A program made the position numbers and the translations under genes. A DNA stretch of 64,000 nucleotides from a virus. Position 1 is the stretch's first letter. Each line of letters begins with the position of its first letter. The notes under the pieces were generated by a model that had not been told where the DNA came from, did not search any database, and saw only the letters and a list, made by a program, of their open reading frames with translations. The stretch spans positions 28,603 through 92,602 of the IMG/VR virus record IMGVR_UViG_3300017917_000616, one strand, 5' to 3'. This document shows, piece after piece, positions 1,758-55,183 of the stretch.

Positions 1758-1758
1758 A

Positions 1759-15133: not shown

Positions 15134-15435
15134 CTTTTATTCTTTAATTCTTCAAACTCAGTATGCCAATCATTCATAACAGTTCTATAGATACTATATG
15201 CCTTTGACCAAAGTTGTGTTCTGTTGACTTTAACTGGATTATCATACATGTCTAAAAGTACAACTTCATCGTCAGTAAAAAATTGTAGTGTGGAAAAAAG
15301 TTTTGGATCGGCACACCAAAGACCACTTTGGTCTGCGAAGACCAACTTGGCTTGATATTTGTCTTTTAGATATTTTTTGGAACTATTGTGATTGAAGCGT
15401 GATTTGGCTTCTTTTAGAAGTTTCTCTGTATCCAT
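15130..15435 (-). CDS. Hypothetical protein, first gene of the modification cluster
   Basis: 101-aa ORF with an ATGA overlap to the next gene, preceded by a TAAATA box. Confidence 0.75.
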   Translation of the reverse strand: MDTEKLLKEAKSRFNHNSSKKYLKDKYQAKLVFADQSGLWCADPKLFSTLQFFTDDEVVLLDMYDNPVKVNRTQLWSKAYSIYRTVMNDWHTEFEELKNKR

Positions 15436-15440
15436 GTAAC

Positions 15441-15448
15441 TATTTAAA
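15441..15448 (-). promoter_or_regulatory. Putative late promoter TTTAAATA
   Basis: Matches the nnTAAATA boxes in front of the structural genes; 5 nt upstream of the ATG. Confidence 0.55.
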
Positions 15449-15471
15449 TGAATACAGAGATTCCAGAATTT

Positions 15472-16437: not shown

Positions 16438-16447
16438 AATAGTATCC

Positions 16448-17653: not shown

Positions 17654-17673
17654 TTAGTGCTCCGCTATTCTAT

Positions 17674-17681
17674 TATTTATC
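17674..17681 (-). promoter_or_regulatory. Late promoter GATAAATA
   Basis: T4 TATAAATA-like box in the intergenic gap upstream of 17653. Confidence 0.65.
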
Positions 17682-18302
17682 TTAAATTGTAACCAGATTT
17701 GTCAAACTCTGTATTCTTACGGTATAGTCGATTTGAATTTGACGGTTTAAACTCTTTTGAACTGGGTGAAAAATTACATGCGTAATTAATTTAGTCAATT
17801 CTTGACCGGAATTGTCAGTACCGTTGTAGGATAAAAGTCCCAACTCATCAAAAACATATGCGCTTTCAGTTTGGGTGCTGTTGTCAAATGCCGCTTGTCC
17901 GGGCGGTTCGCCATAATCTAATAGACATTGAACAATGATGTCCGTGTATACTTTTCCCGCTGTATGGGAGACAGTCATCTTATTTCTAGTAGGATTAGTG
18001 TTGATTATATTAGTGTCGTCTACAACTTTTGCGTAGGTTTCATTATATAAAGCCGCATTTTGTCCAGTTGTGTTTGGTGGAAGATAGGTAATAATACCAG
18101 TCTCATCTACACTAGAACCGCCATTTCCAAAAGCCATCTTATAGATTGTACCCAATCCTCTATTTGTCAATGTTTGGGCAATGGCGACACTTATATTTTC
18201 ATAGTGAATGGCGTTCTTTTTGTCCACAAATACTTCACCATTATTGGGATCATATACTTTTAAAAATCCTTCTATTTGGACTGGAATCATTATTTGTGCC
18301 AT
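17682..18302 (-). CDS. Baseplate-associated structural protein
   Basis: KNAIH...MAFGNGG...FDELGL...THVIFHPVQKS pattern; directly downstream of the giant baseplate gene. Confidence 0.6.
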   Translation of the reverse strand: MAQIMIPVQIEGFLKVYDPNNGEVFVDKKNAIHYENISVAIAQTLTNRGLGTIYKMAFGNGGSSVDETGIITYLPPNTTGQNAALYNETYAKVVDDTNIINTNPTRNKMTVSHTAGKVYTDIIVQCLLDYGEPPGQAAFDNSTQTESAYVFDELGLLSYNGTDNSGQELTKLITHVIFHPVQKSLNRQIQIDYTVRIQSLTNLVTI

Positions 18303-18449: not shown

Positions 18450-18457
18450 TATTTATC
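18450..18457 (-). promoter_or_regulatory. Late promoter GATAAATA
   Basis: Box overlaps the stop codon of the giant gene. Confidence 0.6.
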
Positions 18458-38500: not shown

Positions 38501-38932
38501 CCATAAAATAGTTAAACCACTTAGGTTTAGATTATTAATATCACGCACTTGTTCTGTAGTAGAGATTGCTGTGATTTTGATATAACCTTTACCGGATATA
38601 TTTCTTTTTGGGGTATAACCTACAAGATTAGCTAGTTTGATTACTGAATCTCGTCTTTCGGCTGTATCAATAAAATTTTCTCGGGTATTCAAGTCACTAC
38701 GGAAAGCTAATGCTTGACCCATAAATGCGATTATGTCTAATAAAGCAACATATTCACTGGATTCTACATAATCATTGAATGTCTCGGGATAGTAGGTACG
38801 TAGATAATCTACGAATGTTTTTCGTATAGTTTCGTAATCATAGCTTTGAAAATCTGCTTGACTATAGTTTTTATAGATAGATTTCCAATCATTGATTCCA
38901 AAGATTGCTGATTGTCGGGAACTTGTGGCCAT
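35579..38932 (-). CDS. Baseplate wedge subunit (T4 gp6-like)
   Basis: ENFIDTAERRDSV..LA..VGY.P, FGDG and RAP..Y.TQNRMV..EDY are gp6/baseplate J-like motifs. Confidence 0.85.
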   Translation of the reverse strand: MATSSRQSAIFGINDWKSIYKNYSQADFQSYDYETIRKTFVDYLRTYYPETFNDYVESSEYVALLDIIAFMGQALAFRSDLNTRENFIDTAERRDSVIKLANLVGYTPKRNISGKGYIKITAISTTEQVRDINNLNLSGLTILWNDPANPNWQEQFNSVLNAALLDTQMIGKPGNSKTILGVKTDEYSIVLPTGTSPVVPFNAVVDGSTMNFEGVSVTSVDSDDVYEIPPGNSSRFNIVYRNDKLGYGSPNTGFFMYFKQGSLRSYNFTIPEQISNQTVDINIQGINNTDTWLYAINSNTNSFVEWKQVESVYANSSLQRLTSNKKVFSVSSRTNDQVTYVFGDGVFSEVPVGSFTAYVRSSNGLTYVIDPSEFQSLTVNISYVSRNGRTETLTLTMDLQLPITTAQARESLANIKERAPQRYYTQNRMVNGEDYNNFPFTLYSSIIKSKAINRSSVGVARNFDLLDPSAKYSSTNDFADDGGLYEDINDGFTTFSASTTNDIVNFLTEYIPSILGGDRAHQYYTQAYPRYTFDGTPIYWNQTSVSTGQATGYFYQNSNPIPVGVFTSGNVRYITEGALLGFVAPPGTYFDKENRIIEGLPTPSDTTAIWTSCSVVVGDGYNNGEGNLNNGLGPVTLTNSIPDGAILAVVIPSLSNTLGNTLIQECVTKMRLSQNFSLVYDNSLLANQERWSTSTYNDTEYFIRFQSIGFGRYLVAWRSVAYYFGSVNEVRFAFDRDKVIYDPLSGKLLQDHINILKSNSQANYNFPYPNDIKLYVVGQAVESDGYVDDFSVEVSYGDFETPGSYKNPDFFIDVTGYLPGTRNTNKFVFFRRVVDANLLSRYEMVPTNTVVYGYGTQADIAVVKYEYPVGQVFYAVLESKFYRSVNDSTSANIINLELLTNYTVKTGRQGLYFQYKHVSGETTRVDPATTNIIDLYVVTQGYYTQYNNWLKDTTDTVQEPMRPSINELTTQYNNVNAYKMLSDSVILNSVRFKPLFGHKAAPALQATIKVIKSPTTTASDSEIKTAILSEMNNYFSIDNWDFGDTFYFSELSAYLHSVIGDLINSVVLVPNDPNLSFGDLYEIKSAPYEIFVNAAQATDISVITALTPSELNPSINR

Positions 38933-38950
38933 ACTATTTTCTCTTTATAG

Positions 38951-38958
38951 TATTTATC
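38951..38958 (-). promoter_or_regulatory. Late promoter GATAAATA
   Basis: Intergenic, upstream of gp6 and its AGAGA Shine-Dalgarno-like sequence. Confidence 0.65.
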
Positions 38959-38981
38959 TTAGAGAAAATAACGGTTTTTTG

Positions 38982-39431
38982 TTAGATACCGTAGGCCCTA
39001 CTAGCGTTTTGGTCAAACAATATTGATAATTGTTCTACATTATTAAAGGGTGAGATGGCGAATTCTAATTCGATAAGTATTCCATTCTCTTGCGGATAGC
39101 TAATTACAGAATTTAAAATGAGTCTAGGGTCTAAACTAGCAATTCTTCTAATTTCTGTTTCTATTTGTATTTGAACATCTAGTGTGTTTGGTTCAAATAC
39201 AAAAGACCAAAGACTAGTTCCGTAGCTAGGTTGACCAGTCTTTTGTCCTTGAGGTATATTCAAAGCGTTTATGAAGTCTTGAATTACCAAATCTCTATCA
39301 ACTGTTCTATATTTCTTTGTCGTTTTTACGGGATTTACTAGTGATCCGGCACCACCGTCAGCACCCGAATTTATTTGGGGAGTTCTAACAGAATCTACGT
39401 GTTGGGTGCTAAACCCTATAAATGTTGCCAT
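38982..39431 (-). CDS. Baseplate wedge subunit gp25-like (GPW/gp25)
   Basis: GQK...P.YGT.LW..VFEP...DPR motif; between gp5 and gp6. Confidence 0.85.
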   Translation of the reverse strand: MATFIGFSTQHVDSVRTPQINSGADGGAGSLVNPVKTTKKYRTVDRDLVIQDFINALNIPQGQKTGQPSYGTSLWSFVFEPNTLDVQIQIETEIRRIASLDPRLILNSVISYPQENGILIELEFAISPFNNVEQLSILFDQNASRAYGI

Positions 39432-39448
39432 AAAAATTACCTTTAATA

Positions 39449-39456
39449 TATTTATG
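39449..39456 (-). promoter_or_regulatory. Late promoter CATAAATA
   Basis: Box overlaps the gp5 stop, upstream of gp25. Confidence 0.55.
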
Positions 39457-42400
39457 CTGTTTGTCCGCCCTGAGCGATAGTAGCTAGTTTTTGTCTTAAT
39501 GTTTCAATTTTTTGTAGACATTCTTTATATGCTTGTTCAGCACTGTCAACTTCTGATTGCGTTGCTTTTCCTTCTTTCTGAGCCGCTTTAACATCAAAAT
39601 ATGTTTTACGCAATTCCCATTGTTTATCGTCAACTAATTTATCTAACTCAGCTTTCACTGTGTCATATTCTTTAACTTGATCCGCAGACAGTGGTTGACT
39701 AGGAATTTTTAAATTACCTAAGTTTAAATTAGGTATTTTAGGGTTACCTAATAAGTCTTTAGACTTGTTAAGTACAGAACTAAAATCAAACGTATTTAAT
39801 GCAGTAGTCGGAGCCTTGACTTCGATTGATCCTGGGCTACCCAATGAACTAATTGCTCCTTTTAATTCGGCGGCGGCTGCTGGTGGCAGTCCAGTACTTG
39901 CTAAGGATAAAAGATTTTTGTCCTTCAGACTATTAGTAATACCCGTTAGTTGCGAACCTAGTCCGTTTACTAAACCGTTAGTAGACCCCATTACTCCTTT
40001 AATGGCTGCTGTTATATTTGAAATGCCAGGAACATTTAATCCTGCTCCAGCCTTGTCAACAATTCCTGTAACAGCTCCTGTACCTCCTGGTATACCGGGT
40101 ATATTTGGAACACCTGGTACGTTTCCAGATTTGAGTTGATCTGTTAATCCTCTAGTTGAATTAGCTATACTAGATCCCGCTGACTCTAATGCTCCTCTTA
40201 AACTTCCCCCTTGTTGAAGACCAAATGCTGAAGTTAGTTTATCATTCAATGACTGATTTCTAGCTGTTTGTGCTGCTAACTCTTCAGGTGTTTGTTCCGA
40301 TGTTTCTTTGTTCGTGTTCTCGGCATTTGTTGTTGCTGATGACGCTTCGGCTTCTGCTTTAGCGACTGTAAGATTTTGTGGTATCTTACCTTTTAGTGCT
40401 TTGAAAGAACTTGTTATCTTTGAGAACGCCCCGGCAGCCATACCTTTTAAATTATCAGTGACATCTACGCCACCCAATGTTCCTAACGCCTTGTCAGCGA
40501 GTGCCGATGCAGAGTTTCCGCTAGCAATAGCTTTGTCAACAGAACCAATTATTGGATTTGTTGCTTTTCCTAAGGCGGCACCTGCGGCTTCTAGTGAATT
40601 TTTTAATGCTCCATTTTTTCCTAATCCCATAGCATTGGTCAATGTAGAGTTCAAGTCCATAGTAGCAGCTCCTATAGGATTACCAATAGCATTTTTAGCA
40701 AAATCTATTGTAGCTCCTAAACCGGCTTGGGCACTACTTAACACCAAACCACCAATTTGTGTTGGACTCTCATTGCCGGTAATTAAACCCGTAGCCTTCA
40801 AACCTTGTTCTGATGATTTTAATAAGTTTATACCAACACCAACTTGAGCAGTGGCAGTTTTGGCCAGTGTGGTTACTGACGTTATACCATCTTTACCTGT
40901 AAACAAGTTAGTAGGTATAGCATCTGTTAAAGATTTACCCTGTGATACGAGCTTATTGATGACCGCATCTGCTCCGGGCTTAATAATTCCAGATTGTACT
41001 AATTGTGTAGGGTTAAAGCCAGGTGTTCCAATAACTGCTATCTTTTCACCTGCTATTTCCGCTACCCCGGCACCTTGTGCTACGATTGCGGCTGCTGGGC
41101 CAGTGGCTGCGTTTACTGCCATTTGAGAAACTAATGTCACGGCTGCCTGAGCATTTATAGTATTTGATACTGCTGTTCCTGATGGTACTGTGGCTGCTAG
41201 ACTAGGGGTTGTAGGATTAATTTTAGCCGGCAATGTGGAATCATTAACTTGTTTTACTCCACTAGAAGGAGCTGCAGGTAAATTAGATTCAGAACTTAAA
41301 TCTGTTTTTACATCGACACCTTGACATGCGCCGGCCCATGGACTATGAGCAGGTGCCCTAGATACTATACTAGCTAATTTACCGGGAGCAGGTGCGTATC
41401 CTTTACCCTCATCTCTTAGTGTATCAGTGTGTGCTGTGACGGGCAACTGCTTAACGTCTTTGGGTACCAAAGAACTCTCGCCGGTATTTAAGTGTACATT
41501 AGGACCACCTTTAAGATAGTTAGTGCCACCGCTTTTAATCATACTATCTCCGTTACTTTGTAACGTCATTCTACTATTAACTTTTAATGTATGATCTCCT
41601 TTTGTCAATTGTTCAAAAGTTGTTCCTACAAATTGTGTAGTTGATTTCAAACTTTCAAGTTTGACATTTTCGGCTGAGATATTTAAATCCTTTTTGGCAT
41701 TGATGTTTATGTTATTGTCAGCATGAAGATTTAAATCTCCCTGCGTTCTGATATTGACAGAGTTCGTAGAGTACATATCGATTGTACCCTCTTTACCCAA
41801 TTCAATATAACTAGACCCATTAGCGTGTATTATGAATAAAGTACCGGCATAGTCGTTCATCATAATCATGTGGCCGCCGGCTGTACGCAATCTCATTAAT
41901 TGGTCACGCCCTTGTACATCACCGTCATCCATTACTAGTGTGTGGCCACCAATTCTACCCACTACTTTGAAATTATTGGCAGGTATACTATTGTCTTTTA
42001 AGGCATCAGCTATAGTTTCACTAGTATAGCCACCTTCATATATAGGTCTACCCGGAGTACTAAAACCAAACACATTACTGGGACTTTCACGTGCGCTACT
42101 ACTTGATATTGTTCCCCTGTCTGGATCACGTAATAGACCTTGGTTGTTTAGTATAGCCGCTTGAAAACTGTGTACTGGTCTAGCTAATTTTTGCGGGGTG
42201 GAACTATTGTCTTGCTTATTGTTAGCGTCATTAAATTCTGTTACCGGTAATCGTGTTGCACCGCCATAACTTTGTGCTTCTGTATCATTCGGAATAATCT
42301 CAGTACTAGACCCTATAGCAGGAATCATGTGAGTTAATCCTTCTAAGGGAATTCCTCCTATGTAATATCCAAAGTTTGGATCTCCGTTAATGAATATACA

Positions 42401-42727
42401 AACTACTTGTGTTCCGATATCCGGAGGTGTCGCCCAAAAGCCATAGCTATTTCTATTACCTACATAATCACCATATGAGTCTGGACTTCCTGTATTAGGA
42501 GTATATCCCATAAAAGGACTCAAATAACTAACAGTAGTCCAGTGGTCGGGGTTGTCGGCATCAGTACTATTCATTCTATCTAGCCATACTTGAATTTTTC
42601 CTGTGCGTAGTGGATCGATATTGTTTTTTACAACACCTATGATAGGGTGTGAATATAGTGTTGCGCCGCCCCTATCATCTTTATAAGCAGACATTGTACC
42701 TGTCTGTTTGACTATGTCCTCTGCCAT
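39452..42727 (-). CDS. Baseplate hub/central spike protein (gp5/VgrG-like OB fold plus beta-helix) with a long Ala/Gly-rich extension
   Basis: GVVKNNIDPLRTGKIQV, PPDIGTQV, GGHTLVMDDG, RTAGGHMIMMND, HANGSSYIE, then beta-helix repeats. Confidence 0.85.
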   Translation of the reverse strand: MAEDIVKQTGTMSAYKDDRGGATLYSHPIIGVVKNNIDPLRTGKIQVWLDRMNSTDADNPDHWTTVSYLSPFMGYTPNTGSPDSYGDYVGNRNSYGFWATPPDIGTQVVCIFINGDPNFGYYIGGIPLEGLTHMIPAIGSSTEIIPNDTEAQSYGGATRLPVTEFNDANNKQDNSSTPQKLARPVHSFQAAILNNQGLLRDPDRGTISSSSARESPSNVFGFSTPGRPIYEGGYTSETIADALKDNSIPANNFKVVGRIGGHTLVMDDGDVQGRDQLMRLRTAGGHMIMMNDYAGTLFIIHANGSSYIELGKEGTIDMYSTNSVNIRTQGDLNLHADNNININAKKDLNISAENVKLESLKSTTQFVGTTFEQLTKGDHTLKVNSRMTLQSNGDSMIKSGGTNYLKGGPNVHLNTGESSLVPKDVKQLPVTAHTDTLRDEGKGYAPAPGKLASIVSRAPAHSPWAGACQGVDVKTDLSSESNLPAAPSSGVKQVNDSTLPAKINPTTPSLAATVPSGTAVSNTINAQAAVTLVSQMAVNAATGPAAAIVAQGAGVAEIAGEKIAVIGTPGFNPTQLVQSGIIKPGADAVINKLVSQGKSLTDAIPTNLFTGKDGITSVTTLAKTATAQVGVGINLLKSSEQGLKATGLITGNESPTQIGGLVLSSAQAGLGATIDFAKNAIGNPIGAATMDLNSTLTNAMGLGKNGALKNSLEAAGAALGKATNPIIGSVDKAIASGNSASALADKALGTLGGVDVTDNLKGMAAGAFSKITSSFKALKGKIPQNLTVAKAEAEASSATTNAENTNKETSEQTPEELAAQTARNQSLNDKLTSAFGLQQGGSLRGALESAGSSIANSTRGLTDQLKSGNVPGVPNIPGIPGGTGAVTGIVDKAGAGLNVPGISNITAAIKGVMGSTNGLVNGLGSQLTGITNSLKDKNLLSLASTGLPPAAAAELKGAISSLGSPGSIEVKAPTTALNTFDFSSVLNKSKDLLGNPKIPNLNLGNLKIPSQPLSADQVKEYDTVKAELDKLVDDKQWELRKTYFDVKAAQKEGKATQSEVDSAEQAYKECLQKIETLRQKLATIAQGGQTA

Positions 42728-42738
42728 TTCAATTCCTT

Positions 42739-45390
42739 TTATTCTCTTGCTGTTTCTTCTGGGGTTTTAGCTGGTGCTGGCGCACTACTACCAGAGTTAT
42801 CATCTTCTGCAGACTGTTGGTTAGTAGGCGTCACGTTAGGTGCCGCTTGTATAGACTGTCTTGCTAATAAATCATCTCTTGCGTTTTGTCCAGGCTGAAT
42901 ACCAGAAGTTTGTCTTGCCAATAAATCATCTCTTGCGTTTTGTCCTGGTTGAATGCCACTAGTTGCGTTTTCTCTAACTTGCTGACTCTTGGTAGTTTGA
43001 ACGTCAGGGAAGCTAGGTAATATAGAACGTAGTTCCTGAGTGAATGTCCCTTTGTTAAACCTACTAGTTACTTTAGTAACCATATATACCATTCTACCTT
43101 TAGTAACTGCTTCTATCGCGGGTGGATATTCCCAAAATTTAATATTGCCATTAGGTGTTAGTAACCCGTCATCATTAAACTTTAATGACCCATCGGGACC
43201 AACACTCGTACCATAATCTTCAACTTGTTTGAAATCGACTTCGATAAAGACTTGGCCAGTGTTAGGATTTATCGCATAATCTTGACCTTGTATTGCTTCC
43301 GTAGCTGTTTGGATAGATCCTGATACCGCGGGCATTATAAAATCTGGATCTCCTAAAATTTTAATTTGTGCTTTTATCTGGTCTCCGGGACTATACAAAA
43401 ATGTCTTTACGTTATTCAATAATTCAAAACTACCAGCACTCTTACCAGTTGGATTGGCGTTTTGAGCCGGCATTGTTTGGTTAGGGGCAACATCGTTATT
43501 ATTTCCATTGGCTGCTTCACTCGTTAAAGAAGCCGCATTAAAATATAATAGGTTGTATTGTTGTTCGTAACTTAAAATTTCTTGATTATCACCTGTATAG
43601 TAATAGTTATAAATTTTACTCGGTCCTGTATAAGAAGTTGATGTTCCACCGGTCGCTATACTTCGTACATATGGTATACTATATTTTTGAACTATATATG
43701 TGATTTCATATGCGTAATCATTTCTTAAATTATCATAACCTAATATTTTGATTTGTGGCACTACGTTATACCATTGTAATGGTACTGGTTGACCGTTAAC
43801 AGTATATTCATCTTCGTTTTCTTTTGTTGGCTCTACCTCTTCACCATCTAATATTTTCATTGACCTTTTTAAATAGGTGCTTTGAGAAATGATTTGATCT
43901 ATAGCCGACATTACAGATTGACCCGGTGGTATCTCAATAACTCTTTTATCTTTAGGTACAGTTTGAGTTTGTTGCGCTGTTCTGACATTGACCTCTGCTG
44001 TATTTTTAACTTGTGCTACTGGTGCTCTGCTTTTAACATAAAAATCTTTATCTACGATAAGAGAACCACCTATGATTGGATCTACAATTTCTACCTTGTA
44101 AACATCAGCGATTTGTTGTTTTCTTTCTTTTTCTGGTTTGTTAGTTAACTCTTGCTGTTGTTTGTTTAATTGGGCACAAAGTCCATATAAACTGTTTTGT
44201 GATAAGGCATTTTCTACAGTGTCTGCTTTGATATTAATTAACGAATTGACAATTCCTCGTTTAGTACCTAATCCTATCTGTTCATTTATCGGTTTAGCTT
44301 GACAATCATAGACTGTATTTTTGTTATCTAGTTTGAATCCCATTTTTGTTATAATTATAGGGAATGCTCTTTCAAACGTAGCACTAGCATCAGTTTTGCT
44401 ATACTTTGTGTCAGGATTATTTACTTTTGAAATTACATTGCCGGCATTGTCATAACCATAAAATCTAATCACAAGTAATAGAGGTGCGTTTAAAGCCTGA
44501 ACTTGTTGCTTCATTTTAGCTTTAATGTTTGTTTTTTGTTGTAGTTCTACTTGTGCTTGTACCAATCTAGAGGGAAATGTCATTCCATATGGTTCAATAA
44601 TTTGAAATTTAAAATCTACGCTGTTAGTAGCTATGCCTGTTTCTTTTCCGTTTATTAATGTGGCTATTTCTAAATTGTCGATATAAAAATCGTAGTTAAA
44701 ATATTTGTTTCTGTTACTATCTACTCCCGAAGTAACACCACTACTTTGTAAAATTAACTCTAAACTACTTGTTACCCATTTACCTTGAGCATAAAAATCG
44801 TTAAAGGCTTCTGGTGTTATGAGATATAAACTTATTCTATATGCTACACTGCTAAACTCACTTAGTGGATTATATAAACGTCTGGATACTAATTGACCAG
44901 ACCTTCCAGTAGCGGTAGAACTGCCATTAGAACTTCCAGTAGAGTTTCCGTTAGCCGAAGGAGTACCGTTATTTGATAAAGAGTCATTAGATGAGGCAGC
45001 GGGAGGTGTTTCACCTTGTCCTTCTGCTACTGTTACAGTTCCGGTCTTAGGCTTAAGTTCGTCTGCTTGTCCCCTATCATCTGAATTTTTATTATCTGCG
45101 CTGTCTGAAGCAGTGTCTGATGGTTTTGGTTGTACTTGGGATTTAAGTGTTTGCGCCTGTTCAGTGATAACATTTATCAAATTGTCAAAAAACGCTCTTT
45201 CTTTATCGTATTGAGTGTTTAATTTTATCTGACTTATTACTACATCAGGACTACCTTGGTATAATAAACGACCAGTTCCACCATTAACAGAAATCGTTAC
45301 TGCGCCAGTAACCGTATCAATTTCTGCCGTAGAAATCCATGGATTATATCCTGGATTGGGTATTTCTCTAGAATTTCCAATCGATGCCAT
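42739..45390 (-). CDS. Baseplate hub protein (gp27-like position)
   Basis: F.IIEPYG, IRFYGYD, ILGDP, Y.V..V.S.F..G.FTQEL; sits between the gp53-like gene and gp5. Confidence 0.6.
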   Translation of the reverse strand: MASIGNSREIPNPGYNPWISTAEIDTVTGAVTISVNGGTGRLLYQGSPDVVISQIKLNTQYDKERAFFDNLINVITEQAQTLKSQVQPKPSDTASDSADNKNSDDRGQADELKPKTGTVTVAEGQGETPPAASSNDSLSNNGTPSANGNSTGSSNGSSTATGRSGQLVSRRLYNPLSEFSSVAYRISLYLITPEAFNDFYAQGKWVTSSLELILQSSGVTSGVDSNRNKYFNYDFYIDNLEIATLINGKETGIATNSVDFKFQIIEPYGMTFPSRLVQAQVELQQKTNIKAKMKQQVQALNAPLLLVIRFYGYDNAGNVISKVNNPDTKYSKTDASATFERAFPIIITKMGFKLDNKNTVYDCQAKPINEQIGLGTKRGIVNSLINIKADTVENALSQNSLYGLCAQLNKQQQELTNKPEKERKQQIADVYKVEIVDPIIGGSLIVDKDFYVKSRAPVAQVKNTAEVNVRTAQQTQTVPKDKRVIEIPPGQSVMSAIDQIISQSTYLKRSMKILDGEEVEPTKENEDEYTVNGQPVPLQWYNVVPQIKILGYDNLRNDYAYEITYIVQKYSIPYVRSIATGGTSTSYTGPSKIYNYYYTGDNQEILSYEQQYNLLYFNAASLTSEAANGNNNDVAPNQTMPAQNANPTGKSAGSFELLNNVKTFLYSPGDQIKAQIKILGDPDFIMPAVSGSIQTATEAIQGQDYAINPNTGQVFIEVDFKQVEDYGTSVGPDGSLKFNDDGLLTPNGNIKFWEYPPAIEAVTKGRMVYMVTKVTSRFNKGTFTQELRSILPSFPDVQTTKSQQVRENATSGIQPGQNARDDLLARQTSGIQPGQNARDDLLARQSIQAAPNVTPTNQQSAEDDNSGSSAPAPAKTPEETARE
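42856..42963 (-). repeat. 2 x 54-bp in-frame tandem repeat encoding TSGIQPGQNARDDLLARQ
   Basis: Units 42910-42963 and 42856-42909; 7 nt differences, all synonymous. Confidence 0.95.
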
Positions 45391-47577: not shown

Positions 47578-47602
47578 AGTGTCATCATTATTACGGAGAA
47601 CT

Positions 47603-48505
47603 ATGAGCATCGCAGTTAAAAAACCAGTAAATTATCTTAATAACAAAGACATTCTCAAAGAAATACATTTAAGCAAAAACGCCTATTGTAGCTATAAAAA
47701 TCCAAATACAGACCATAAGTATGATTTTATAGTAGACATGCCGCAAGAACCTTTAGAGAAGTCTTTTGAATACGCATTAAAGCCCGAGACTATTCAACAG
47801 GCTAAAGAGAATCATGCCGCTAGAATTGATTTAGAAAACGACCTCCCAAAAGGCACTACTGACCCAAATTCTATCCCGGAAACAGATTTAATTTTTAGAG
47901 TGATGACCTGGGAACATATCCCAGTAGCACCCAAACAACCTAGAAAAATAGATAAAAAGAAAACAGCCAAAGACATATTTGAGTTTGAAGATGATTCAGA
48001 ACTTGAACTTGAAGACCTAGAAGATCCTAGCACTAAGGGAGAAGTTGACGACATGGTTCATGTAAAAGTTAACTTTCCTCCTTTTCAGCATTTTAAAATA
48101 GACAAAAATGGTTCTTTCAAATGCGTAGGTAAAAGTCATTGGATCGGCCCCATGAAGTCTGGGCAGTTCAGCAAAGATCACGGAAACATTACTGATAAAT
48201 TGGCTAGGATGTATATTATGATGTGTGAGAAATACGCTATGAAGTTTAACTGGCGTGGGTACACATATAATGATGAAATGCGTAACAGTGCTATTCTTCA
48301 ATTGACATACGTTGGATTACGCTTTAATGAAGCCAAATCACAAAACCCTTTCGCTTATTATACCGCGGCAATTACTAACAGTTTTTGTCGTGTCTTGAAT
48401 TCCGAAAAGAGAAATCAAAACATTCGTGATGATATTTTAGAAATGAATGGGCTAAATCCAAGTTGGACTCGTCAGGGAATTTCGAGTACTGTCTACGAAG
48501 AATGA
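47603..48505 (+). CDS. Late-transcription sigma factor (T4 gp55-like)
   Basis: NYLNNKDIL, NWRGYTYNDEM, FNEAKSQNPFAYYT; upstream of gp47 and gp46 as in T4. ATG at 47603 follows GGAGA; the ORF track starts at 47579. Confidence 0.85.
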   Translation: MSIAVKKPVNYLNNKDILKEIHLSKNAYCSYKNPNTDHKYDFIVDMPQEPLEKSFEYALKPETIQQAKENHAARIDLENDLPKGTTDPNSIPETDLIFRVMTWEHIPVAPKQPRKIDKKKTAKDIFEFEDDSELELEDLEDPSTKGEVDDMVHVKVNFPPFQHFKIDKNGSFKCVGKSHWIGPMKSGQFSKDHGNITDKLARMYIMMCEKYAMKFNWRGYTYNDEMRNSAILQLTYVGLRFNEAKSQNPFAYYTAAITNSFCRVLNSEKRNQNIRDDILEMNGLNPSWTRQGISSTVYEE

Positions 48506-48519
48506 TTTAACCAACAGTA

Positions 48520-48548
48520 TTGATTTAACTTATTTGTTTTAGTAAAAT
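48520..48548 (+). promoter_or_regulatory. Sigma70-like promoter for the gp47 operon: TTGATT-17 nt-TAAAAT
   Basis: 17-nt spacer; the -10 ends 6 nt before the ATG, so the mRNA is probably leaderless. Confidence 0.6.
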
Positions 48549-48554
48549 ATCCGA

Positions 48555-49568
48555 ATGAGTAACCTTTTCAAGAAAGCGGCTGTCTTTACTGATATTCATT
48601 TTGGATTAAAGTCTAACAGCCTACAACATAACGAAGATTGTGCGGGTTTTGTCGATTGGTTTATCCAAGAAGCAAAAAAAGAAAATTGCGAGACTTGTTT
48701 CTTTTTGGGTGACTGGCATCATCATAGGGCCAGCATCAACCTACATACACTTCAATATAGTCTAAAAGCCTTAGAAAAACTAAATGACAACTTTGATGTT
48801 GTGTATTTTATTCCTGGCAATCATGACCTTTACTATCGTGACCGTCGAGACATTCATTCAGTAGAATGGGCTAAACATTTACCTAATGTTCAAATCATTA
48901 ATGATTTTTTCAAACAAGGTGATGTAATCATTGCTCCCTGGTTGGTTCAAGAAGATTACAAGAAAATTCAAAAATTATCCGGAAAGTATCTGTTTGGACA
49001 TTTAGAACTTCCGCACTTTTATATGAATGCTATGGTCGAGATGCCCGATCACGGCGAAATCAACGAACATCATTGTGCCGGGTTTGATAAAGTCTTTAGC
49101 GGACATTTCCATAAACGACAAGCAAGAAAAAATATTTGGTACATCGGTAATGCGTTCCCGCATAACTATGCTGACGCCGGCGATGATGCCCGTGGTATGA
49201 TGATACTAGAATGGGGTCAAGAACCTGTATTCAAATCATGGCCACGACAACCTGTGTTCCGAGTACATAAACTAAGTGATGTATTGGATAATCCAGAAGG
49301 ATTGCTATTGATAGATAGCCATGTTAGAGTTCACTTAGATATTGAAATTAGCTACGAAGAGGCTAACTTCTTACGTGAAACATGGATACCTGAATATAAG
49401 GTTAGAGAAATGACGTTAATACCCATGAAGTCCGAACAAGTTGAACAACAGGGTTCAGAAGGCTTAAAGTTTGAAAGTGTGGATCAAATCGTTATTGACC
49501 AAATCAATGCGATTGAGTCTAACACTTTCGACAAAAAAATATTGCTAGAGATTTATAATAACCTATGA
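48555..49568 (+). CDS. Recombination endonuclease subunit (T4 gp47, Mre11/SbcD-like)
   Basis: Metallophosphoesterase motifs DIH, GDW, GNHD, GH and SGHFH. Confidence 0.92.
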   Translation: MSNLFKKAAVFTDIHFGLKSNSLQHNEDCAGFVDWFIQEAKKENCETCFFLGDWHHHRASINLHTLQYSLKALEKLNDNFDVVYFIPGNHDLYYRDRRDIHSVEWAKHLPNVQIINDFFKQGDVIIAPWLVQEDYKKIQKLSGKYLFGHLELPHFYMNAMVEMPDHGEINEHHCAGFDKVFSGHFHKRQARKNIWYIGNAFPHNYADAGDDARGMMILEWGQEPVFKSWPRQPVFRVHKLSDVLDNPEGLLLIDSHVRVHLDIEISYEEANFLRETWIPEYKVREMTLIPMKSEQVEQQGSEGLKFESVDQIVIDQINAIESNTFDKKILLEIYNNL

Positions 49569-51328
49569 TTCAAATAAAGAACATTACCTTACGGAATTTT
49601 TTGAGTATTGGACAAGTAACACAAGCAGTTGATTTCAATAAACAGGATCTCACACTGATCTTGGGAGAAAACTTAGACCTAGGTGGCGATGGTGCTAGAA
49701 ATGGTACTGGAAAGACTACTCTTATTCAGGGTCTTTCCTATGCTTTGTTTGGTGTACCTATTAACAACATTCGCAAAGATAACTTAGTTAATAGAACCAA
49801 CGCCAAGGGCATGATGGTTACTCTTGAGTTTAATGTTAACGGAACTGATTATAAAATTGAGCGTGGTAGAAAACCTAACATTCTTAAGTTTTATGTTAAC
49901 AATGAACAACAAAAAGCCTCTGAGGATCAACAAGGCGAGAATAAAGAAACACAAGCAGCCATTGAAAAAATTATACACATGTCACCGGACATGTTTAGAC
50001 ATATTGTGGTTCTAAATACATATACTGAACCTTTTCTGTCACTTAAATCTAATGAGCAACGTGATATCATTGAACAACTTTTGGGTATCACCTTACTTTC
50101 GGAGAAAGCAGAATCTATTAAACTGTTAGTCAAAGATACTAAAGATGAGATACAAGCCGAAGAATTTAAAATCAAAGCCATTGAAGAGGCTAACAAGCGT
50201 GTTAAAGAACAAATCGATTCTGCGAAGCGAAGGCAAAAACTTTGGCAAACAAAACATGACGAAGACCTATCTAAGTTGGCTTTGGCATACGATGAGTTAA
50301 CTAAAATTGATATCAATGTTGAGTTACAGGCTCACAAAGATTTGGTCGCATATAACATCAAACAAAAAGAAATCGATGATTTGAATAAGTTCATTGTTCG
50401 CGGCAAGGCAGACGAAGCTAAAGAACAAAAAATAATCGAAAAACTAAATAAAGAAATTGAAGATTTAAAAAATCATACTTGTTATGCGTGTGGGCAAGAA
50501 TTTCACGATAGTAAGCATGAGCAAGTTCTTGCTACAAAAGAAAAGGCATTACAAGAGGCTGCGCTTCAAGCACTTTCTACGAATAGCCAGTTACTGGAAA
50601 ATGAAGAAAAATTAAAAGGACTAGGCACACTAGGCCCGATTCCCAAAACTCATTATGATACCGAAGCTGAAGCTATTAAGCATTCAAGTCAAATTTCAAA
50701 CATTTTACAACAAATAGAATTGAAGGCAGCTGAAGTAGATCCTTATTCAGAACAAATAGCTGAGATGGAGAGTCAAGCACTACAAGAAATTAGTTTTGAT
50801 AAAATCAATACATTGACTAAGAAAGTAGAACATCAAAAGTTCTTACTTGATTTGTTGACTAGCAAAGACAGTTTTGTTCGTAAAAAAATCATTGACCAGA
50901 ATTTAAGTTACTTAAACGGTAGATTGACACACTACTTAGATAAGATTGGTCTGCCACACACCGTCGTGTTTAAAAATGACCTTCAAGTTGAAATTACCGA
51001 GTTGGGAAGAGAACTTGACTTTGATAATCTAAGTCGAGGTGAACGCAATCGTTTAATTCTTGGTCTGAGTTTTGCTTTCCGTGATGTATGGGAAAACTTA
51101 TACTTACCTATCAATACTTTGTTTATTGACGAATTAATCGATTCTGGACTAGATACAATGGGTGTGGAAAACTCTATTGCAATTCTAAAAGACATGAGCA
51201 GACGTAGACAGAAATCTATTTGGCTTGTCAGTCACCGCGAAGAATTAGCAGGTAGAGTTCCTAATGTACTGAAGGTCGTAAAAGAAAACGGCTTTACTAG
51301 TTATAATACTGCTGTGGAGATAGAATGA
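49565..51328 (+). CDS. Recombination ATPase subunit (T4 gp46, Rad50/SbcC-like)
   Basis: Walker A NGTGKT, coiled coil with CYAC zinc hook, signature LSRGE, Walker B FIDE, VSH. Confidence 0.93.
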   Translation: MIQIKNITLRNFLSIGQVTQAVDFNKQDLTLILGENLDLGGDGARNGTGKTTLIQGLSYALFGVPINNIRKDNLVNRTNAKGMMVTLEFNVNGTDYKIERGRKPNILKFYVNNEQQKASEDQQGENKETQAAIEKIIHMSPDMFRHIVVLNTYTEPFLSLKSNEQRDIIEQLLGITLLSEKAESIKLLVKDTKDEIQAEEFKIKAIEEANKRVKEQIDSAKRRQKLWQTKHDEDLSKLALAYDELTKIDINVELQAHKDLVAYNIKQKEIDDLNKFIVRGKADEAKEQKIIEKLNKEIEDLKNHTCYACGQEFHDSKHEQVLATKEKALQEAALQALSTNSQLLENEEKLKGLGTLGPIPKTHYDTEAEAIKHSSQISNILQQIELKAAEVDPYSEQIAEMESQALQEISFDKINTLTKKVEHQKFLLDLLTSKDSFVRKKIIDQNLSYLNGRLTHYLDKIGLPHTVVFKNDLQVEITELGRELDFDNLSRGERNRLILGLSFAFRDVWENLYLPINTLFIDELIDSGLDTMGVENSIAILKDMSRRRQKSIWLVSHREELAGRVPNVLKVVKENGFTSYNTAVEIE

Positions 51329-51720
51329 AAAAAATTTTTGTAAACGGCACATTCGATTTGTTACATTTGGGGCATTTGGGTATCTTATCCTATGCTAAAA
51401 GTTTAGGAACACATTTGACTGTAGCTATTGATAGTGATAAAAGGGTTAAAAACCTAAAGGGTCCTGACAGACCTATAAACAAAGCATTTGATAGATTGAC
51501 AATGCTAAACGCAATGAAATGTGTTGATACTGTAATAGTTTTTGATACGGACGAAGAACTTATTGACTTAATCAAACAATGTGATATAATGGTTAAAGGC
51601 TCTGATTATAGAGGGCAACCCATTATAGGTGAAGAGTTTGCTAAAGAAATTGTCTTTTTCGAAAGAATAGATGGATACTCAACTACAGAAAAAATTCAAC
51701 GTATTACTAATCGGAGATAA
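51325..51720 (+). CDS. hldC: Heptose 1-phosphate nucleotidyltransferase (HldC/RfaE domain II-like cytidylyltransferase family)
   Basis: NGTFDLLHLGH (HxGH), LKGPDRP, VKGSDY, GYSTT; adjacent to the kinase and the epimerase. Confidence 0.8.
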   Translation: MKKIFVNGTFDLLHLGHLGILSYAKSLGTHLTVAIDSDKRVKNLKGPDRPINKAFDRLTMLNAMKCVDTVIVFDTDEELIDLIKQCDIMVKGSDYRGQPIIGEEFAKEIVFFERIDGYSTTEKIQRITNRR

Positions 51721-52414
51721 TTGTATCGATGTGTACCAATACGGTACTGTTGATAGATTAAGTCCTGAGGCACCTGTTCCGATTTTTGTTCCAACACATA
51801 AAGAAGAACGTGAAGGTATGGTCGGAAACGTATACAAGAATTTACTAGCACTAGGGTGTGAAGTTACACTTGTATGTGGTCATGCTAGTAAGAAAACTAG
51901 ATTAGTTGATGCGAGAAGCAAGCAACAGATTACTAGAGTTGATGAAGATGTTAAATCGATACCTGTTGTGAATGTAGACACAACAGGTTACGATGCCATT
52001 GTTATTAGCGATTATGATAAAGGTGTTGTATCGTATGAGTTAATTGAAAAAATGATTAACACAAAACTTCCGGTTTTTATAGATACTAAAAAAACAGACT
52101 TAGGAAGAATGCAGGGAGCTTGGGTAAAAATCAACGAAGTAGAATATAGTCGTGTTAGGTCTGAATGTACTGGGCTTATTGTAACCAGAGGTTCAAAAGG
52201 AGCAGAAGTAATACATCATGATATTTGGTGTACTGCTCCTAAAATAGAAGTTGTAGATGTTACTGGAGCAGGTGATACTTTCTTGTCTGCTTTAACATAT
52301 CAATATTTGATTACTAAAAATATCAAAACTTCAGTAGAGTTTGCTATTAAGGCATCTAGCATTACTGTGAAACATTTTGGTGTGTACGCACCATCTTTAG
52401 AGGAAATTCAATGA
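51671..52414 (+). CDS. hldA: Heptose 7-phosphate kinase (HldA/RfaE domain I, PfkB family)
   Basis: IGDNCID...RLSPEAPVP, KKTR, SDYDKG, DVTGAGDT. Confidence 0.85.
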   Translation: MDTQLQKKFNVLLIGDNCIDVYQYGTVDRLSPEAPVPIFVPTHKEEREGMVGNVYKNLLALGCEVTLVCGHASKKTRLVDARSKQQITRVDEDVKSIPVVNVDTTGYDAIVISDYDKGVVSYELIEKMINTKLPVFIDTKKTDLGRMQGAWVKINEVEYSRVRSECTGLIVTRGSKGAEVIHHDIWCTAPKIEVVDVTGAGDTFLSALTYQYLITKNIKTSVEFAIKASSITVKHFGVYAPSLEEIQ

Positions 52415-52782
52415 CTAGGTTAGAGGGTTTTGTACAAAAAGGTTGGGGTAGTGAACTGATATTTGCTACCAATGACAAGTATTGTGGTAAAATTTTAAAC
52501 TTTAATGAGGGTGCTAAGTTTAGCATGCACTTTCATGCTCAAAAAGATGAGAGTTGGTTTGTTGTTACCGGTAAGTTTATTGTGAAGTATATTGACACTA
52601 CAAATGCCACCATTCTAGAAAAAGAACTAAATGCCGGTGATACATGGCATAATGAACCATTATTTCCGCATCAGTTGATTTGTTTAGAAGAAGGTATGAT
52701 AGTTGAAGTATCTACCCCCGATAGTGTAGAAGATAACTATAGGGTATTTCCAGGAGACAGTCAAAATGAAACTTGTTGTTGA
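52411..52782 (+). CDS. Cupin-fold sugar isomerase-like protein
   Basis: KGWG.E, SMHFH..K.E, PH and EVST metal-binding cupin pattern. Confidence 0.75.
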   Translation: MTRLEGFVQKGWGSELIFATNDKYCGKILNFNEGAKFSMHFHAQKDESWFVVTGKFIVKYIDTTNATILEKELNAGDTWHNEPLFPHQLICLEEGMIVEVSTPDSVEDNYRVFPGDSQNETCC

Positions 52783-53077
52783 TATCGATGGTACTATATG
52801 TACTAACACAAAAGGAGACTACCAATCTGCAGAACCATACATGGATCGTATTGCTCACTTTAACAAATTGTATGATGAGGGGCATGAGATACATTATTGG
52901 ACTGCTAGGGGAGGCAACACAAATATAGACTGGACTAAACTCACTATGCAGCAATTAAGTGAATGGGGAGTTAAGTATACCACCGCTAGGATGCATAAAC
53001 CTGTTTATGATTTATGGGTGGATGATAAAGCAATGAACGTAGAGGCTTATTTTGAAAATATTACTAACAGGGCATAA
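52766..53077 (+). CDS. Minimal (capless) HAD-family phosphatase
   Basis: VDIDGT (DxDxT), WTARG, KP, DDKA. Confidence 0.8.
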   Translation: MKLVVDIDGTICTNTKGDYQSAEPYMDRIAHFNKLYDEGHEIHYWTARGGNTNIDWTKLTMQQLSEWGVKYTTARMHKPVYDLWVDDKAMNVEAYFENITNRA

Positions 53078-53867
53078 AGGTTTTATAGGTAGAAACATGC
53101 TACAGTATTTGGAAGATAATACTGATTGGCAGGTTGACACTTTTGATTGGCGCGGCGACATTATGCCAGGCATAATGGATAAAGACTGGGTCATACATAT
53201 AGGTGCTATAAGCTCTACAACGGAACGTGATATTGATAAAATCATGAAGCAAAATTATGATTTTTCTCGACAATTGTTTAAAGTATGTAAAACCTATGGA
53301 GTAAATCTACAATATTCTAGTACAGCTAGTTTATATGGAATGGGAACAAACTTCAGCGAAGAGGCACAACTTGATCCTATAACTCCGTACGCATGGTCAA
53401 AATATCTATGTGAGCGTTACCATCAGATGACCCAAGGTGGAAATATTGTACAGGGATTTAGGTATTTCAACGTTTACGGTAACGGGGAAGAACATAAAGG
53501 TAGTCAAGCTAGCCCCATTTCAAAATTCAAAAAACTAGCAGAAAACAACGAGCCTATTAAAATTTTTGAAGGTTCGAATGAATATTTTCGTGATTTTGTC
53601 TGTGTAACAGACGTATGTAGAGTACATGTTGAATTCATCAAAAATGTAAAAGAATCAGGTATTTTTAACATAGGTACTGGAAAAGCACGTAGCTTTCAAG
53701 AAGTCGCTGACTTGATTTCTAGCAATCAAGAATACATTCCTATACCAGAACATCTGCTTAGAAGCTATCAAAAATACACATGTAGCGATAATTCTAAGCT
53801 AGAGCGGGTACTAGGACCGCAAAAATGGATAACAATAGAAGATTTTTTAAAGTCACAAAAAGTTTGA
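53052..53867 (+). CDS. hldD: ADP-L-glycero-D-manno-heptose 6-epimerase-like SDR
   Basis: TGHKGFIG, HIGAISSTTE, YAWSK (YxxxK), FRYFNVYG..E.HKGSQAS, RDFV, YQKYT; TTG start. Confidence 0.88.
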   Translation: MKILLTGHKGFIGRNMLQYLEDNTDWQVDTFDWRGDIMPGIMDKDWVIHIGAISSTTERDIDKIMKQNYDFSRQLFKVCKTYGVNLQYSSTASLYGMGTNFSEEAQLDPITPYAWSKYLCERYHQMTQGGNIVQGFRYFNVYGNGEEHKGSQASPISKFKKLAENNEPIKIFEGSNEYFRDFVCVTDVCRVHVEFIKNVKESGIFNIGTGKARSFQEVADLISSNQEYIPIPEHLLRSYQKYTCSDNSKLERVLGPQKWITIEDFLKSQKV

Positions 53868-53878
53868 TAAGTATGATT

Positions 53879-54433
53879 ATGCCAAGTCCACAGAAACAGA
53901 AGGGTTCAGGTTTTGAACGAGAAGTTGCTAAGTTTTTAAGCAATTTATATAACGAGAGTTTTATCCGAGCACCAGGATCCGGAGCGTATGTGGGCGGTAC
54001 AAATCAATCTAGGAAAGAATTCCTACATGAAGGTCAAATTCGTAGCTTTAAAGGGGACATAGTTCCTGGACAAAGTTTTTCGAAAATGAATGCTGAATGT
54101 AAGAGTTACAAAGACTTCCCCTTTCACCTACTTCTTACAGGTGAATGCGCTCAATTTGACAAGTGGCTAGAACAACTGTTAGATGTAGCAGATCCTGATG
54201 ATATGAACATTCTGTTTATGAAATTCAATCGTATAGGTCGTTATGTCGCTGTACAACCAAAACTAACATGGATGATTGATAGTTTCACTTTCTATGGTAG
54301 TAAAAAGTACGGTGATTGGTATATCACAGAGTTCGACAACTTTTTCAAACTCAATAAAGACTTAGTAAAACTTTACTCAGGCTCATCAGACACCAAGTCA
54401 ATCTCAACTCCCAAACAATTAATTCAGGCTTAA
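53879..54433 (+). CDS. PD-(D/E)xK nuclease, Holliday junction resolvase (Hjc-like)
   Basis: KGSGFEREVA...SGA...GDI...AECK. Likely start MPSPQ, 5 nt after a GATAAGTA box; the ORF track starts at 53825. Confidence 0.75.
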   Translation: MPSPQKQKGSGFEREVAKFLSNLYNESFIRAPGSGAYVGGTNQSRKEFLHEGQIRSFKGDIVPGQSFSKMNAECKSYKDFPFHLLLTGECAQFDKWLEQLLDVADPDDMNILFMKFNRIGRYVAVQPKLTWMIDSFTFYGSKKYGDWYITEFDNFFKLNKDLVKLYSGSSDTKSISTPKQLIQA

Positions 54434-54444
54434 TATAAATTAAA

Positions 54445-54810
54445 AATTAGCAGGCTGTGTTTGACAGTCCTCCTTGAAGAAGCGTGAAATATCGCCGATG
54501 GATCTGGAGTATCGATGTTAGTAATAACATCGGATCACCGAGAGGGCAATCTGTCTAGGGAACCCTCAATGAGTACATATCTAATTCCATTTTGCGGATA
54601 TGTAACATGCGTTGTCGAGGCATCATATAATAGAGAATATGACAGTCTCACTACAAACCCGTAAAAATTTACAGGACAACCGGTGACATGTGAGAACAAA
54701 AACGGTTACTCATGTGGGGTATAAATGGCAATGGATGACGGGCATGGCAAGTCTTTTCCAATGGTAGTGCTGAAATAGCACTACCATGGCTTCAAAGCGG
54801 CAAGTATAGT
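54445..54810 (+). ncRNA. Putative large structured non-coding RNA (family unassigned, ends approximate)
   Basis: Nested helices, including CGATGTTA-GTAA-TAACATCG, long-range TCACCG/CGGTGA and GTTGTC/GACAAC, TACATATC/GATATGTA and an 11-bp ATGGTAGTGCT/AGCACTACCAT. A GNRA loop and G-U pairs work on the plus strand. TATAAAT box at 54434-54440. Confidence 0.7.
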
Positions 54811-54844
54811 TTCCCCTTAATAAAGTGAATACAGAATTAAAACG

Positions 54845-54903
54845 ATGCTGAACAATACGAACGAAGTGAGTATTGTGATAGCATAGATGACCGAAGGTCA
54901 TCT
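54845..54903 (+). other. Two adjacent hairpins with cGAAg triloops and tandem GA mismatches (ssDNA-type structure, possibly also a terminator)
   Basis: ATGCT-GA-ACAATAC-GA-AC-GAA-GT-GA-GTATTGT-GA-T-AGCAT followed directly by AGATGACC-GAA-GGTCATCT. Confidence 0.75.
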
Positions 54904-54955
54904 TTAAATGAGTGTGACAATTACCCTAAGTTACTATAATGAATAGCTACGGATA

Positions 54956-55183
54956 TTAAAAGAATGGCAATCTAGAATTCTTAGTAGTTTCTAAGTTTTC
55001 TTCAATCAGTTTAGCTATACTTTCTCTTTCACTCATACTCATATTAAGTATATCGGTGTAGGAAGCCCCGCCTCTCATATACCAAGCCATTTTTAATGAA
55101 TTGGCTTTGATGGCTTTACACTCCTCTTCCATTTGACTTATCAACTTCTTAATTTCCTCGGAGTCAAGGAAAAGAAGTCTCAT
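54956..55183 (-). CDS. Baseplate hub assembly catalyst (gp51-like position)
   Basis: Short ORF (WYMRGG.SY..I.NM...ER) coupled by ATGA to the gp26-like gene. Confidence 0.6.
   Translation of the reverse strand: MRLLFLDSEEIKKLISQMEEECKAIKANSLKMAWYMRGGASYTDILNMSMSERESIAKLIEENLETTKNSRLPFF

Follow-up and report, generated by a model that had tools for sequence, protein, structure and literature searches.

Can a phage build an activated heptose when it carries neither the canonical isomerase nor the canonical 7-phosphatase of the pathway? This question is raised by a cassette of five genes at 51325-53867 of the window, that is, the 64,000-nucleotide stretch analysed here, which forms the last 64 kb of the 92.6-kb linear IMG/VR virus record IMGVR_UViG_3300017917_000616 (CheckV completeness ~20%). 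In bacteria, ADP-L-glycero-beta-D-manno-heptose is produced by the successive action of GmhA, HldA or HldE-N, GmhB, HldC or HldE-C, and HldD. A first-pass annotation, made from the DNA letters, had described five overlapping genes for a nucleotidyltransferase, a PfkB kinase, a cupin, a HAD phosphatase and an HldD-like epimerase, and had proposed a complete, non-canonical pathway in which the cupin and the HAD take the places of GmhA and GmhB. All five open reading frames (ORFs) were found at these coordinates on the plus strand, with successive overlaps of 50, 4, 17 and 26 nt, and the family matches agree with each label (Table 1).

The block very probably makes a nucleotide-heptose. It is a closer call, tilting slightly to the affirmative, whether the five genes form a self-contained phage-encoded route from sedoheptulose 7-phosphate to ADP-L-glycero-beta-D-manno-heptose with the cupin at the first step; the cupin itself has somewhat better than even prospects of being a sedoheptulose-7-phosphate isomerase. 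Along this route, the metal cupin would convert sedoheptulose 7-phosphate into D-glycero-D-manno-heptose 7-phosphate through a metal-dependent aldose-ketose isomerisation, and the PfkB kinase would phosphorylate C1 to yield heptose 1,7-bisphosphate. The 103-amino-acid (aa) HAD, of a type named after the phage enzyme AfhF, would then remove the 7-phosphate to leave heptose 1-phosphate, the HxGH transferase would add AMP to generate ADP-D,D-heptose, and the short-chain dehydrogenase/reductase (SDR) would epimerise C6 to give ADP-L,D-heptose. Phosphomannose isomerase cupins perform the same C1-C2 aldose-ketose chemistry, with the manno configuration, on fructose 6-phosphate.

Canonical homologues and the AfhF-type phosphatase

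Three of the five products appear to be compact, diverged HldE/HldD homologues, for which this is clearly the best family. The transferase scores 116 bits against TIGR02199, its best family, under an equivalog cut-off of 181.5, and its translation contains the motifs HLGH (HxGH) and YSTT (ISST-type, nucleotide-binding). The kinase, whose best family is TIGR02198 (137 bits, under a cut-off of 345), is shorter than the model of ~315 aa and contains the GAGD motif. The epimerase reaches 215.5 bits against TIGR02197 (cut-off 274.6), its second family, GalE, scoring only 64 bits; the SDR motifs GxxGxxG and YxxxK are present, and its N-terminal region is shorter than that of the model. An HldD-type 6-epimerase needs a C6 stereocentre, that is, a heptose, since a hexose offers none; its presence in the cassette therefore argues for a heptose substrate.

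In comparison with the bacterial pathway, the cassette shares the order of chemistry and has recognisable homologues of the kinase, the adenylyltransferase and the 6-epimerase; in related phages, a heptosyltransferase-like gene of glycosyltransferase family GT9 is linked to it. The differences are equally clear. The cassette has a cupin and an AfhF-type mini-HAD in place of the SIS-fold GmhA and the TIGR00213 GmhB, HldE is split into two short proteins, its three homologues fall under the NCBIfam equivalog cut-offs, and the genomic setting is a phage recombination/replication block rather than a lipopolysaccharide (LPS) locus.

The replacement of GmhB by the HAD is the best-supported part of the earlier proposal. 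The HAD matched TIGR01689 (E 1.2e-5) and, weakly, the HAD-IIIA subfamily (E 2.7e-3). In a phmmer search it matched PDB entry 9iqw, titled 'phage HY126 encoded D-arabinose 1,5-diphosphate phosphatase AfhF', with E 4.1e-13 over residues 3-95, and 9iqw also ranked first in a Foldseek search with the predicted model (TM score 0.80, 37% identity; model confidence, pLDDT, 86). Motifs I-IV, comprising DIDGT (D6, D8), T46, K78, D86 and D87, are fully or almost fully conserved across 38 homologues, and ~100 aa is the usual length for this mini-HAD family. Furthermore, the protein is ~41% identical over its full length to the AfhF homologues of Serratia phage LC53, which has arabinosyl-DNA, and Yersinia phage phiR1-RT. 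AfhF is a Mg-dependent phosphatase that converts arabinofuranose (Araf)-1,5-bisphosphate into Araf-1-phosphate between the C1 kinase and the nucleotidyltransferase; it belongs to the UDP-arabinose pathway of arabinosyl-5-hydroxycytosine phages, with homologues such as RB69 gp51 and DLP3 gp81 (PMC13326640).

By these sequence and model comparisons the HAD belongs to the AfhF family of minimal sugar-bisphosphate phosphatases, and the characterised AfhF reaction is, by analogy, exactly the GmhB-type step on another sugar. Gene context points to heptose 1,7-bisphosphate as the substrate, and the protein is likely to be the heptose 7-phosphatase of the pathway. GmhB proteins are ~180-190 aa long and are HAD-IIIA enzymes with a zinc loop. 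The GmhB model TIGR00213 had no match in the 92.6-kb record or in four complete relatives, and the GmhB structures 3l8h and 2gmw were reached from the HAD model at a Foldseek E of only ~0.1. The proposed substitution is thus strengthened by a characterised relative that performs the equivalent step, and it has to be restated in one respect: the HAD and GmhB are members of the same superfamily, so a distant paralogue, and not another fold, would have replaced GmhB.

The phage UDP-D-arabinofuranose pathway (HY126 AfhE/AfhF; RB69 gp51, gp52-53 and gp55) resembles the proposed route in its sequence of isomerase, C1 kinase, terminal-phosphate phosphatase and nucleotidyltransferase, and AfhF has a homologue in the cassette HAD. 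In the arabinose pathway, the isomerase acts on arabinose 5-phosphate and is a SIS protein, and the kinase/transferase protein differs from those of the cassette (PMC13326640). Unlike a heptose, arabinose is a pentose, and its product is placed on DNA, whereas the cassette combines a kinase, a transferase and an epimerase of HldE/HldD type, and a DNA glycosyltransferase was not identified.

The cupin and its association with putative heptose-phosphate enzymes

The cupin and its relatives match the mannose-6-phosphate isomerase and lyxose isomerase families of Pfam weakly, and some relatives pass the PF01050 (MannoseP_isomer) cut-off, P0136 among them with 31 bits. The metal site (H40, H42, E47, H87), together with K27, K45 and R111, is invariant or nearly so across 65 homologues down to 39% identity. 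In structural comparisons with the AlphaFold model (pLDDT 94), VIA-align retrieved the minimal Thermococcus phosphomannose isomerases 7zvm and 7zvy with Z scores of 14.3 and 14.1 over ~100 residues at 12-15% identity. The cupin has in common with type II phosphomannose isomerases (PF01050) and these minimal archaeal enzymes a single small barrel and a His/His/Glu/His metal site, and the proposed reaction would be the seven-carbon analogue of the conversion of fructose 6-phosphate into mannose 6-phosphate. It differs from them in belonging to a family with its own conserved motifs that, according to the ESM Atlas, is almost wholly viral. This family comprises 4084 clusters at 90% identity, or 2752 representatives at 50% (E <=0.001). 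When cellular-genome contigs were searched with a five-sequence cupin alignment, seven loci were recovered, all in metagenome-assembled genomes, and these are probably mis-binned phage contigs. Assigning the function by fold or by PDB sequence search was also attempted and set aside: sequence and profile searches yielded generic cupins, with oxalate decarboxylase leading, and the structural matches were tied, so that the fold was not used.

Neighbourhoods were counted around 50 cupin-anchored IMG/VR loci, each flanked by 3 kb or more of sequence to either side, and around 51 kinase-anchored loci. Within 3 kb of the cupin, the transferase was present in 41/50, the kinase in 40/50 and the epimerase in 32/50, in cassettes showing 12 different gene orders. 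Conversely, the cupin lay within 4 kb of the kinase in 47 of the 51 kinase-anchored loci (92%). Among 48 homologues longer than 216 aa, natural fusions were frequent: 32 HAD-cupin, seven cupin-transferase, one transferase-cupin and one kinase-transferase-cupin (P0436, confirmed with Pfam). In INPHARED, all true phages with the kinase also carry the cupin, save one 735-kb uncultured phage (two records, a weak 27% match), and those with both are all cyanophages or marine single-virus genomes. The cupin is thus tied to the kinase, the transferase and the HAD by both neighbourhood and natural fusion.

The absence of GmhA and GmhB from the cassette, as claimed by the first-pass annotation, holds across the 92.6-kb record, in which the SIS/GmhA models PF13580 and TIGR00441 found no match at E values up to 1; this record is, as stated above, about one fifth complete. 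Among relatives, P-SSM2, S-SSM7 and S-SM2, whose genomes are complete, gave no SIS_2 match, and a set of 30 viral records with the cupin, including four with a completeness of 90% or more, yielded none above the cut-off. Altogether, seven complete or near-complete cupin-bearing phage genomes have no SIS-fold GmhA, and six of these also carry the kinase. E. coli GmhA gave no cyanophage match by tblastn. True SIS GmhA homologues occur in only 13 INPHARED records, which are unrelated and include Caulobacter phage Cr30, a 636-kb uncultured phage and fragments, and no cyanophage. Within phages, no kinase-bearing record had SIS, whether or not the cupin was present; because of this, an anti-correlation between cupin and GmhA is uninformative.

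Weighing the isomerase assignment

Several observations weigh against an isomerase role for the cupin in a self-contained pathway. At the level of the protein, the Pfam matches of the cupin lie below the cut-offs (PF01050, 21.9 bits versus 23.6, E 2.1e-4), and the top VIA-align match is the cupin domain of CapF (Z 15.5, 114 residues aligned, 16% identity). At the level of the genome, four fifths of the source phage lie outside the record, where a gmhA gene is possible, and its closest relatives in culture are phages of Pseudomonas and Sinorhizobium, hosts that would own both GmhA and GmhB. The cassettes themselves are also variable. The mini-HAD accompanies the cupin in only 4/50 cupin-anchored loci and the kinase in 11/51 kinase-anchored loci, and a search that had no positive control did not find it anywhere in five checked records, including four with a completeness of 90% or more. 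In 6/50 loci, the cupin has no kinase, transferase or epimerase nearby; such loci adjoin genes for S-adenosylhomocysteine (AdoHcy) hydrolase, methyltransferases, a phosphoribosyltransferase or radical SAM proteins. Locus L014 shares the backbone of L013 and L016 but is devoid of the epimerase, transferase and kinase genes, and the complete 355-kb phage G004 carries the cupin and has no HldE-type kinase match. Finally, in 4/51 kinase loci, neither cupin nor SIS was found in the record, which implies that some phages manage without either. The earlier claim of a complete pathway therefore stands in part: its logic is strengthened by the AfhF family, the cupin context and the SIS-free genomes, and it is weakened by the tied fold matches of the cupin and by the presence of the HAD in a minority of related cassettes.

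The most serious competing explanation, although unlikely, is that the first step falls to a host GmhA and the cupin tailors heptose or nucleotide-heptose at a later stage, for instance as a CapF- or RmlC-like epimerase working with an SDR, to yield a heptose isomer other than L-glycero-D-manno. The cupin domain of CapF is a C3-epimerase of a UDP-sugar, and the CapF of S. aureus, the top structural neighbour, fuses its cupin to an SDR. Adjacency of cupin and epimerase is also the commonest arrangement (14/50), the proteobacterial hosts of the nearest cultured relatives own GmhA, and the kinase-bearing records with neither cupin nor SIS are compatible with a supply from the host. Nevertheless, none of the 48 longer homologues is a cupin-SDR fusion, while 41 are fused to heptose-phosphate enzymes, and in 11/50 loci that have no epimerase within 3 kb the cupin still adjoins the transferase and kinase. 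The likeness to CapF is itself equivocal, as identity is low and the top scores are tied within ~1.5 Z among CapF, phosphomannose isomerases, KdgF, quercetinase and lyxose isomerase. Moreover, three cassette-bearing phages infect marine Synechococcus WH8102, whose LPS contains neither heptose nor Kdo (PMC4515613); this makes a host supply of GmhA doubtful for cyanophages.

It is considerably less probable that the cupin is a general sugar or sugar-phosphate isomerase, of phosphomannose- or lyxose-isomerase type, that works in several phage glycan pathways and has been recruited to the heptose genes only loosely, the kinase and transferase of some phages perhaps using a hexose phosphate instead. 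The weak Pfam matches to both isomerase families would fit, as would the methyltransferase, AdoHcy hydrolase and radical SAM neighbours of the cupin-only loci, a cupin-methyltransferase fusion (P0424), and the phages Bellamy and SynMITS9220M01, where the gene next to the cupin encodes another kind of nucleotidyltransferase and a search for kinase homologues found none. Such a role is hard to reconcile with the HldD-type 6-epimerase, for which a hexose has no stereocentre, in this cassette and in 32/50 loci, with the constancy of the cupin in kinase loci, and with the GT9 heptosyltransferase-like genes that accompany the cassette. Least probable of all is that the cupin is no isomerase but an oxygenase or a small-molecule-binding regulator. 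Foldseek with the cupin model does list dioxygenases and oxalate decarboxylases among many equal matches, cyanophage cassettes lie near 2-oxoglutarate-Fe(II) oxygenase genes, and both PHROG 7851 and RefSeq carry the label 'cysteine dioxygenase'. This label was rejected: no such Pfam or NCBIfam match appeared at E values up to 0.01, and its basis is a resemblance of the generic cupin kind, ~15% identity, to a putative enzyme of B. subtilis; an oxygenase would, besides, have no obvious reason to be fused to sugar-phosphate enzymes.

Some loci deserve mention in their own right. The cupin lies between two Methyltransf_24 genes in L049 and in L068 (10001-10366), the methyltransferase fused to it in P0424 is of Methyltransf_24 type, and cupin-only contexts with AdoHcy hydrolase, phosphoribosyltransferase and radical SAM neighbours occur at L027 8707-9999 and L082 9500-11406; a further function of the cupin, apart from heptose synthesis, is possible. 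Regarding the phosphatase, a 159-aa ORF resembling dual-specificity/PTP-fold phosphatases (L061 11402-11881; its cluster is also found in L025 and L027) recurs in nine cupin-bearing loci that have no mini-HAD. It may be an alternative phosphatase, or it may be unrelated.

Annotation, product and genomic setting

The preferred reading, a heptose route opened by a cupin isomerase, bears on entries that are already in the databases, because the cassette itself is catalogued, under wrong names, as T4-GC 304-308 of cyanomyoviruses. The same five families stand side by side in P-SSM2 (PSSM2_309-313), S-SSM7, S-SM2, S-CAM1 and others, at 35-51% identity to the cassette proteins. The cyanophage clusters differ from the present locus in that the HAD precedes the cupin and the epimerase is often encoded on the opposite strand, and the source phage is a PA5oct/Phosso-like jumbo myovirus and not a member of the Kyanoviridae. 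PHROG 1238 and RefSeq (records of P-SSM2, S-SSM7, S-SM2 and S-CAM1) name the AfhF-type HAD 'phosphoheptose isomerase', while records of the cupin, beyond the label rejected above, also read 'putative nucleotidyltransferase'. Marine virome work (PMC9238414) counts 'phosphoheptose isomerase [gmhA]' among the 'well-characterized' markers of auxiliary metabolic genes; this marker is mislabelled if it corresponds to the AfhF-type HAD family. The cupin/mini-HAD swap is widespread in phages and mislabelled in databases, the pathway itself is the most likely interpretation, and the enzyme roles are putative. In the literature on cyanophage heptose and on sedoheptulose-7-phosphate isomerases, no paper was found that proposes a cupin in the isomerase role. 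If the assignment is correct, thousands of environmental phage contigs would encode another way of taking the first committed step towards heptose, with an enzyme structurally unrelated to the known one, and widespread HAD and cupin annotations would be corrected.

In related phages, GT9 heptosyltransferase-like genes occur in 14/33 cupin-bearing records, a linkage that supports ADP-heptose as the product. In L024 (5070-8525), with equivalents in L006, L041, L071 and L072, the genes directly upstream of a cassette ordered kinase, cupin, transferase, epimerase encode a 403-aa TylC3-like NDP-sugar C-methyltransferase and a 290-aa GT9 heptosyltransferase-like protein, which suggests a methylated heptose and its transfer in these phages. 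Cyanophages whose hosts have a heptose-free LPS would still invest in ADP-heptose, and this sharpens the question of which acceptor receives it. For the source phage, GT9 was not found in the 92.6-kb record, and Pfam revealed no glycosyltransferase in the gene cluster that lies upstream on the minus strand (273-18302, 20 ORFs). There is a slim chance that the heptose is made not for LPS but as a donor for hypermodification of the phage's own macromolecules, possibly DNA, through a new family of cupin-fold sedoheptulose-7-phosphate isomerases. This idea derives from the AfhF-type phosphatase shared with the UDP-arabinose pathway by which RB69-like phages modify their cytosine, from the coupling of the cassette to the gp46/gp47 recombination genes, and from the many relatives that place the cassette between helicase and primase genes.

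In P-TIM68 (KM359505.1, 168912-169640), the cassette kinase is annotated beside a 'transketolase central region-containing protein', which could feed sedoheptulose 7-phosphate to the pathway.

Table 1. Positions of the cassette genes and other features in the window, with their supporting matches; enzyme roles are putative.
Feature	Position	Strand	Support
HldC-like heptose-1-phosphate adenylyltransferase, 131 aa	51325..51720	+	TIGR02199 rfaE domain II E 9.5e-34; CTP_transf_like E 7e-16; phrog_7878 E 5e-40
HldA-like PfkB heptose-7-phosphate 1-kinase, compact, 247 aa	51671..52414	+	TIGR02198 rfaE domain I E 7.4e-40; PfkB E 1.6e-16; phrog_8133 E 3e-87
Phage-type metal cupin, candidate sedoheptulose-7-phosphate isomerase, 123 aa	52411..52782	+	Cupin_2 E 2e-5; MannoseP_isomer E 2e-4
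AfhF-family minimal HAD phosphatase, candidate heptose-1,7-bisphosphate 7-phosphatase, 103 aa	52766..53077	+	PDB 9iqw match; HAD motifs
HldD-like ADP-heptose 6-epimerase, TTG start, 271 aa	53052..53867	+	TIGR02197 E 9.5e-64; Epimerase PF01370 E 1.6e-28
gp47 (Mre11/SbcD-like) and gp46 (Rad50/SbcC-like) genes	48555..51328	+	Metallophos, AAA_23, SMC_N and Rad50 matches
Phage PD-(D/E)XK endonuclease gene, overlapping the end of the epimerase gene	53825..54433	+	PDDEXK_15 E 9e-25
NodU/NolO-type carbamoyltransferase	273-1757	-	
UDP-glucose/GDP-mannose dehydrogenase-family protein	3848-5074	-	
Radical SAM protein (SPASM)	6956-8272	-	
Radical SAM protein	9496-10995	-	
Radical SAM protein	10976-12346	-	

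The cassette is embedded in a continuous series of overlapping plus-strand genes (47579-54433) that begins with an unassigned ORF, continues with the gp47-like and gp46-like genes and the five cassette genes, and ends with the PD-(D/E)XK nuclease gene. The ATG of the transferase gene shares the sequence ATGA with the stop of the gp46-like gene, and through this overlap the cassette is predicted to be translationally coupled to gp46, the five genes presumably being translated as one overlapping block. No terminator-like site was found on the plus strand of this series, and promoter-like sites were at the level of shuffled sequence (32 observed versus 29.6). The gp46 protein is nearest to those of Pseudomonas jumbo phage PA5oct (49% identity) and Sinorhizobium phage Phosso (46%); the source phage is, judging from this protein, a large jumbo myovirus of the T4 superfamily outside the Kyanoviridae.

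Elsewhere in the window, the minus strand at 273-17653 consists of overlapping genes, many of them ORFs with no Pfam match. A carbamoyltransferase, like that listed in Table 1, adjoins the heptose cassette in P-SSM2 and lies near it in S-SSM7 and Sf-FS3, which hints at a carbamoylated heptose. This cluster is followed on the same strand by a giant ORF of 5706 aa (18453-35573) and by three ORFs of ~900-1100 aa (35579-45390), whose products are presumably structural or fibre proteins and might accept glycans. At the start of the record, 28.6 kb upstream of the window, positions 1-126 hold a truncated gene of the thymidylate synthase family that covers the first 43 profile positions only, a fragment that fits either thymidylate synthase or a pyrimidine hydroxymethylase/hydroxylase. 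Downstream of the cassette, the interval between the PD-(D/E)XK gene and a baseplate gene (54434-55179) has no ORF of at least 100 aa on either strand; it contains only minus-strand ORFs of 54-75 aa and two minus-strand terminator-like hairpins (54675-54658 and 54551-54533).

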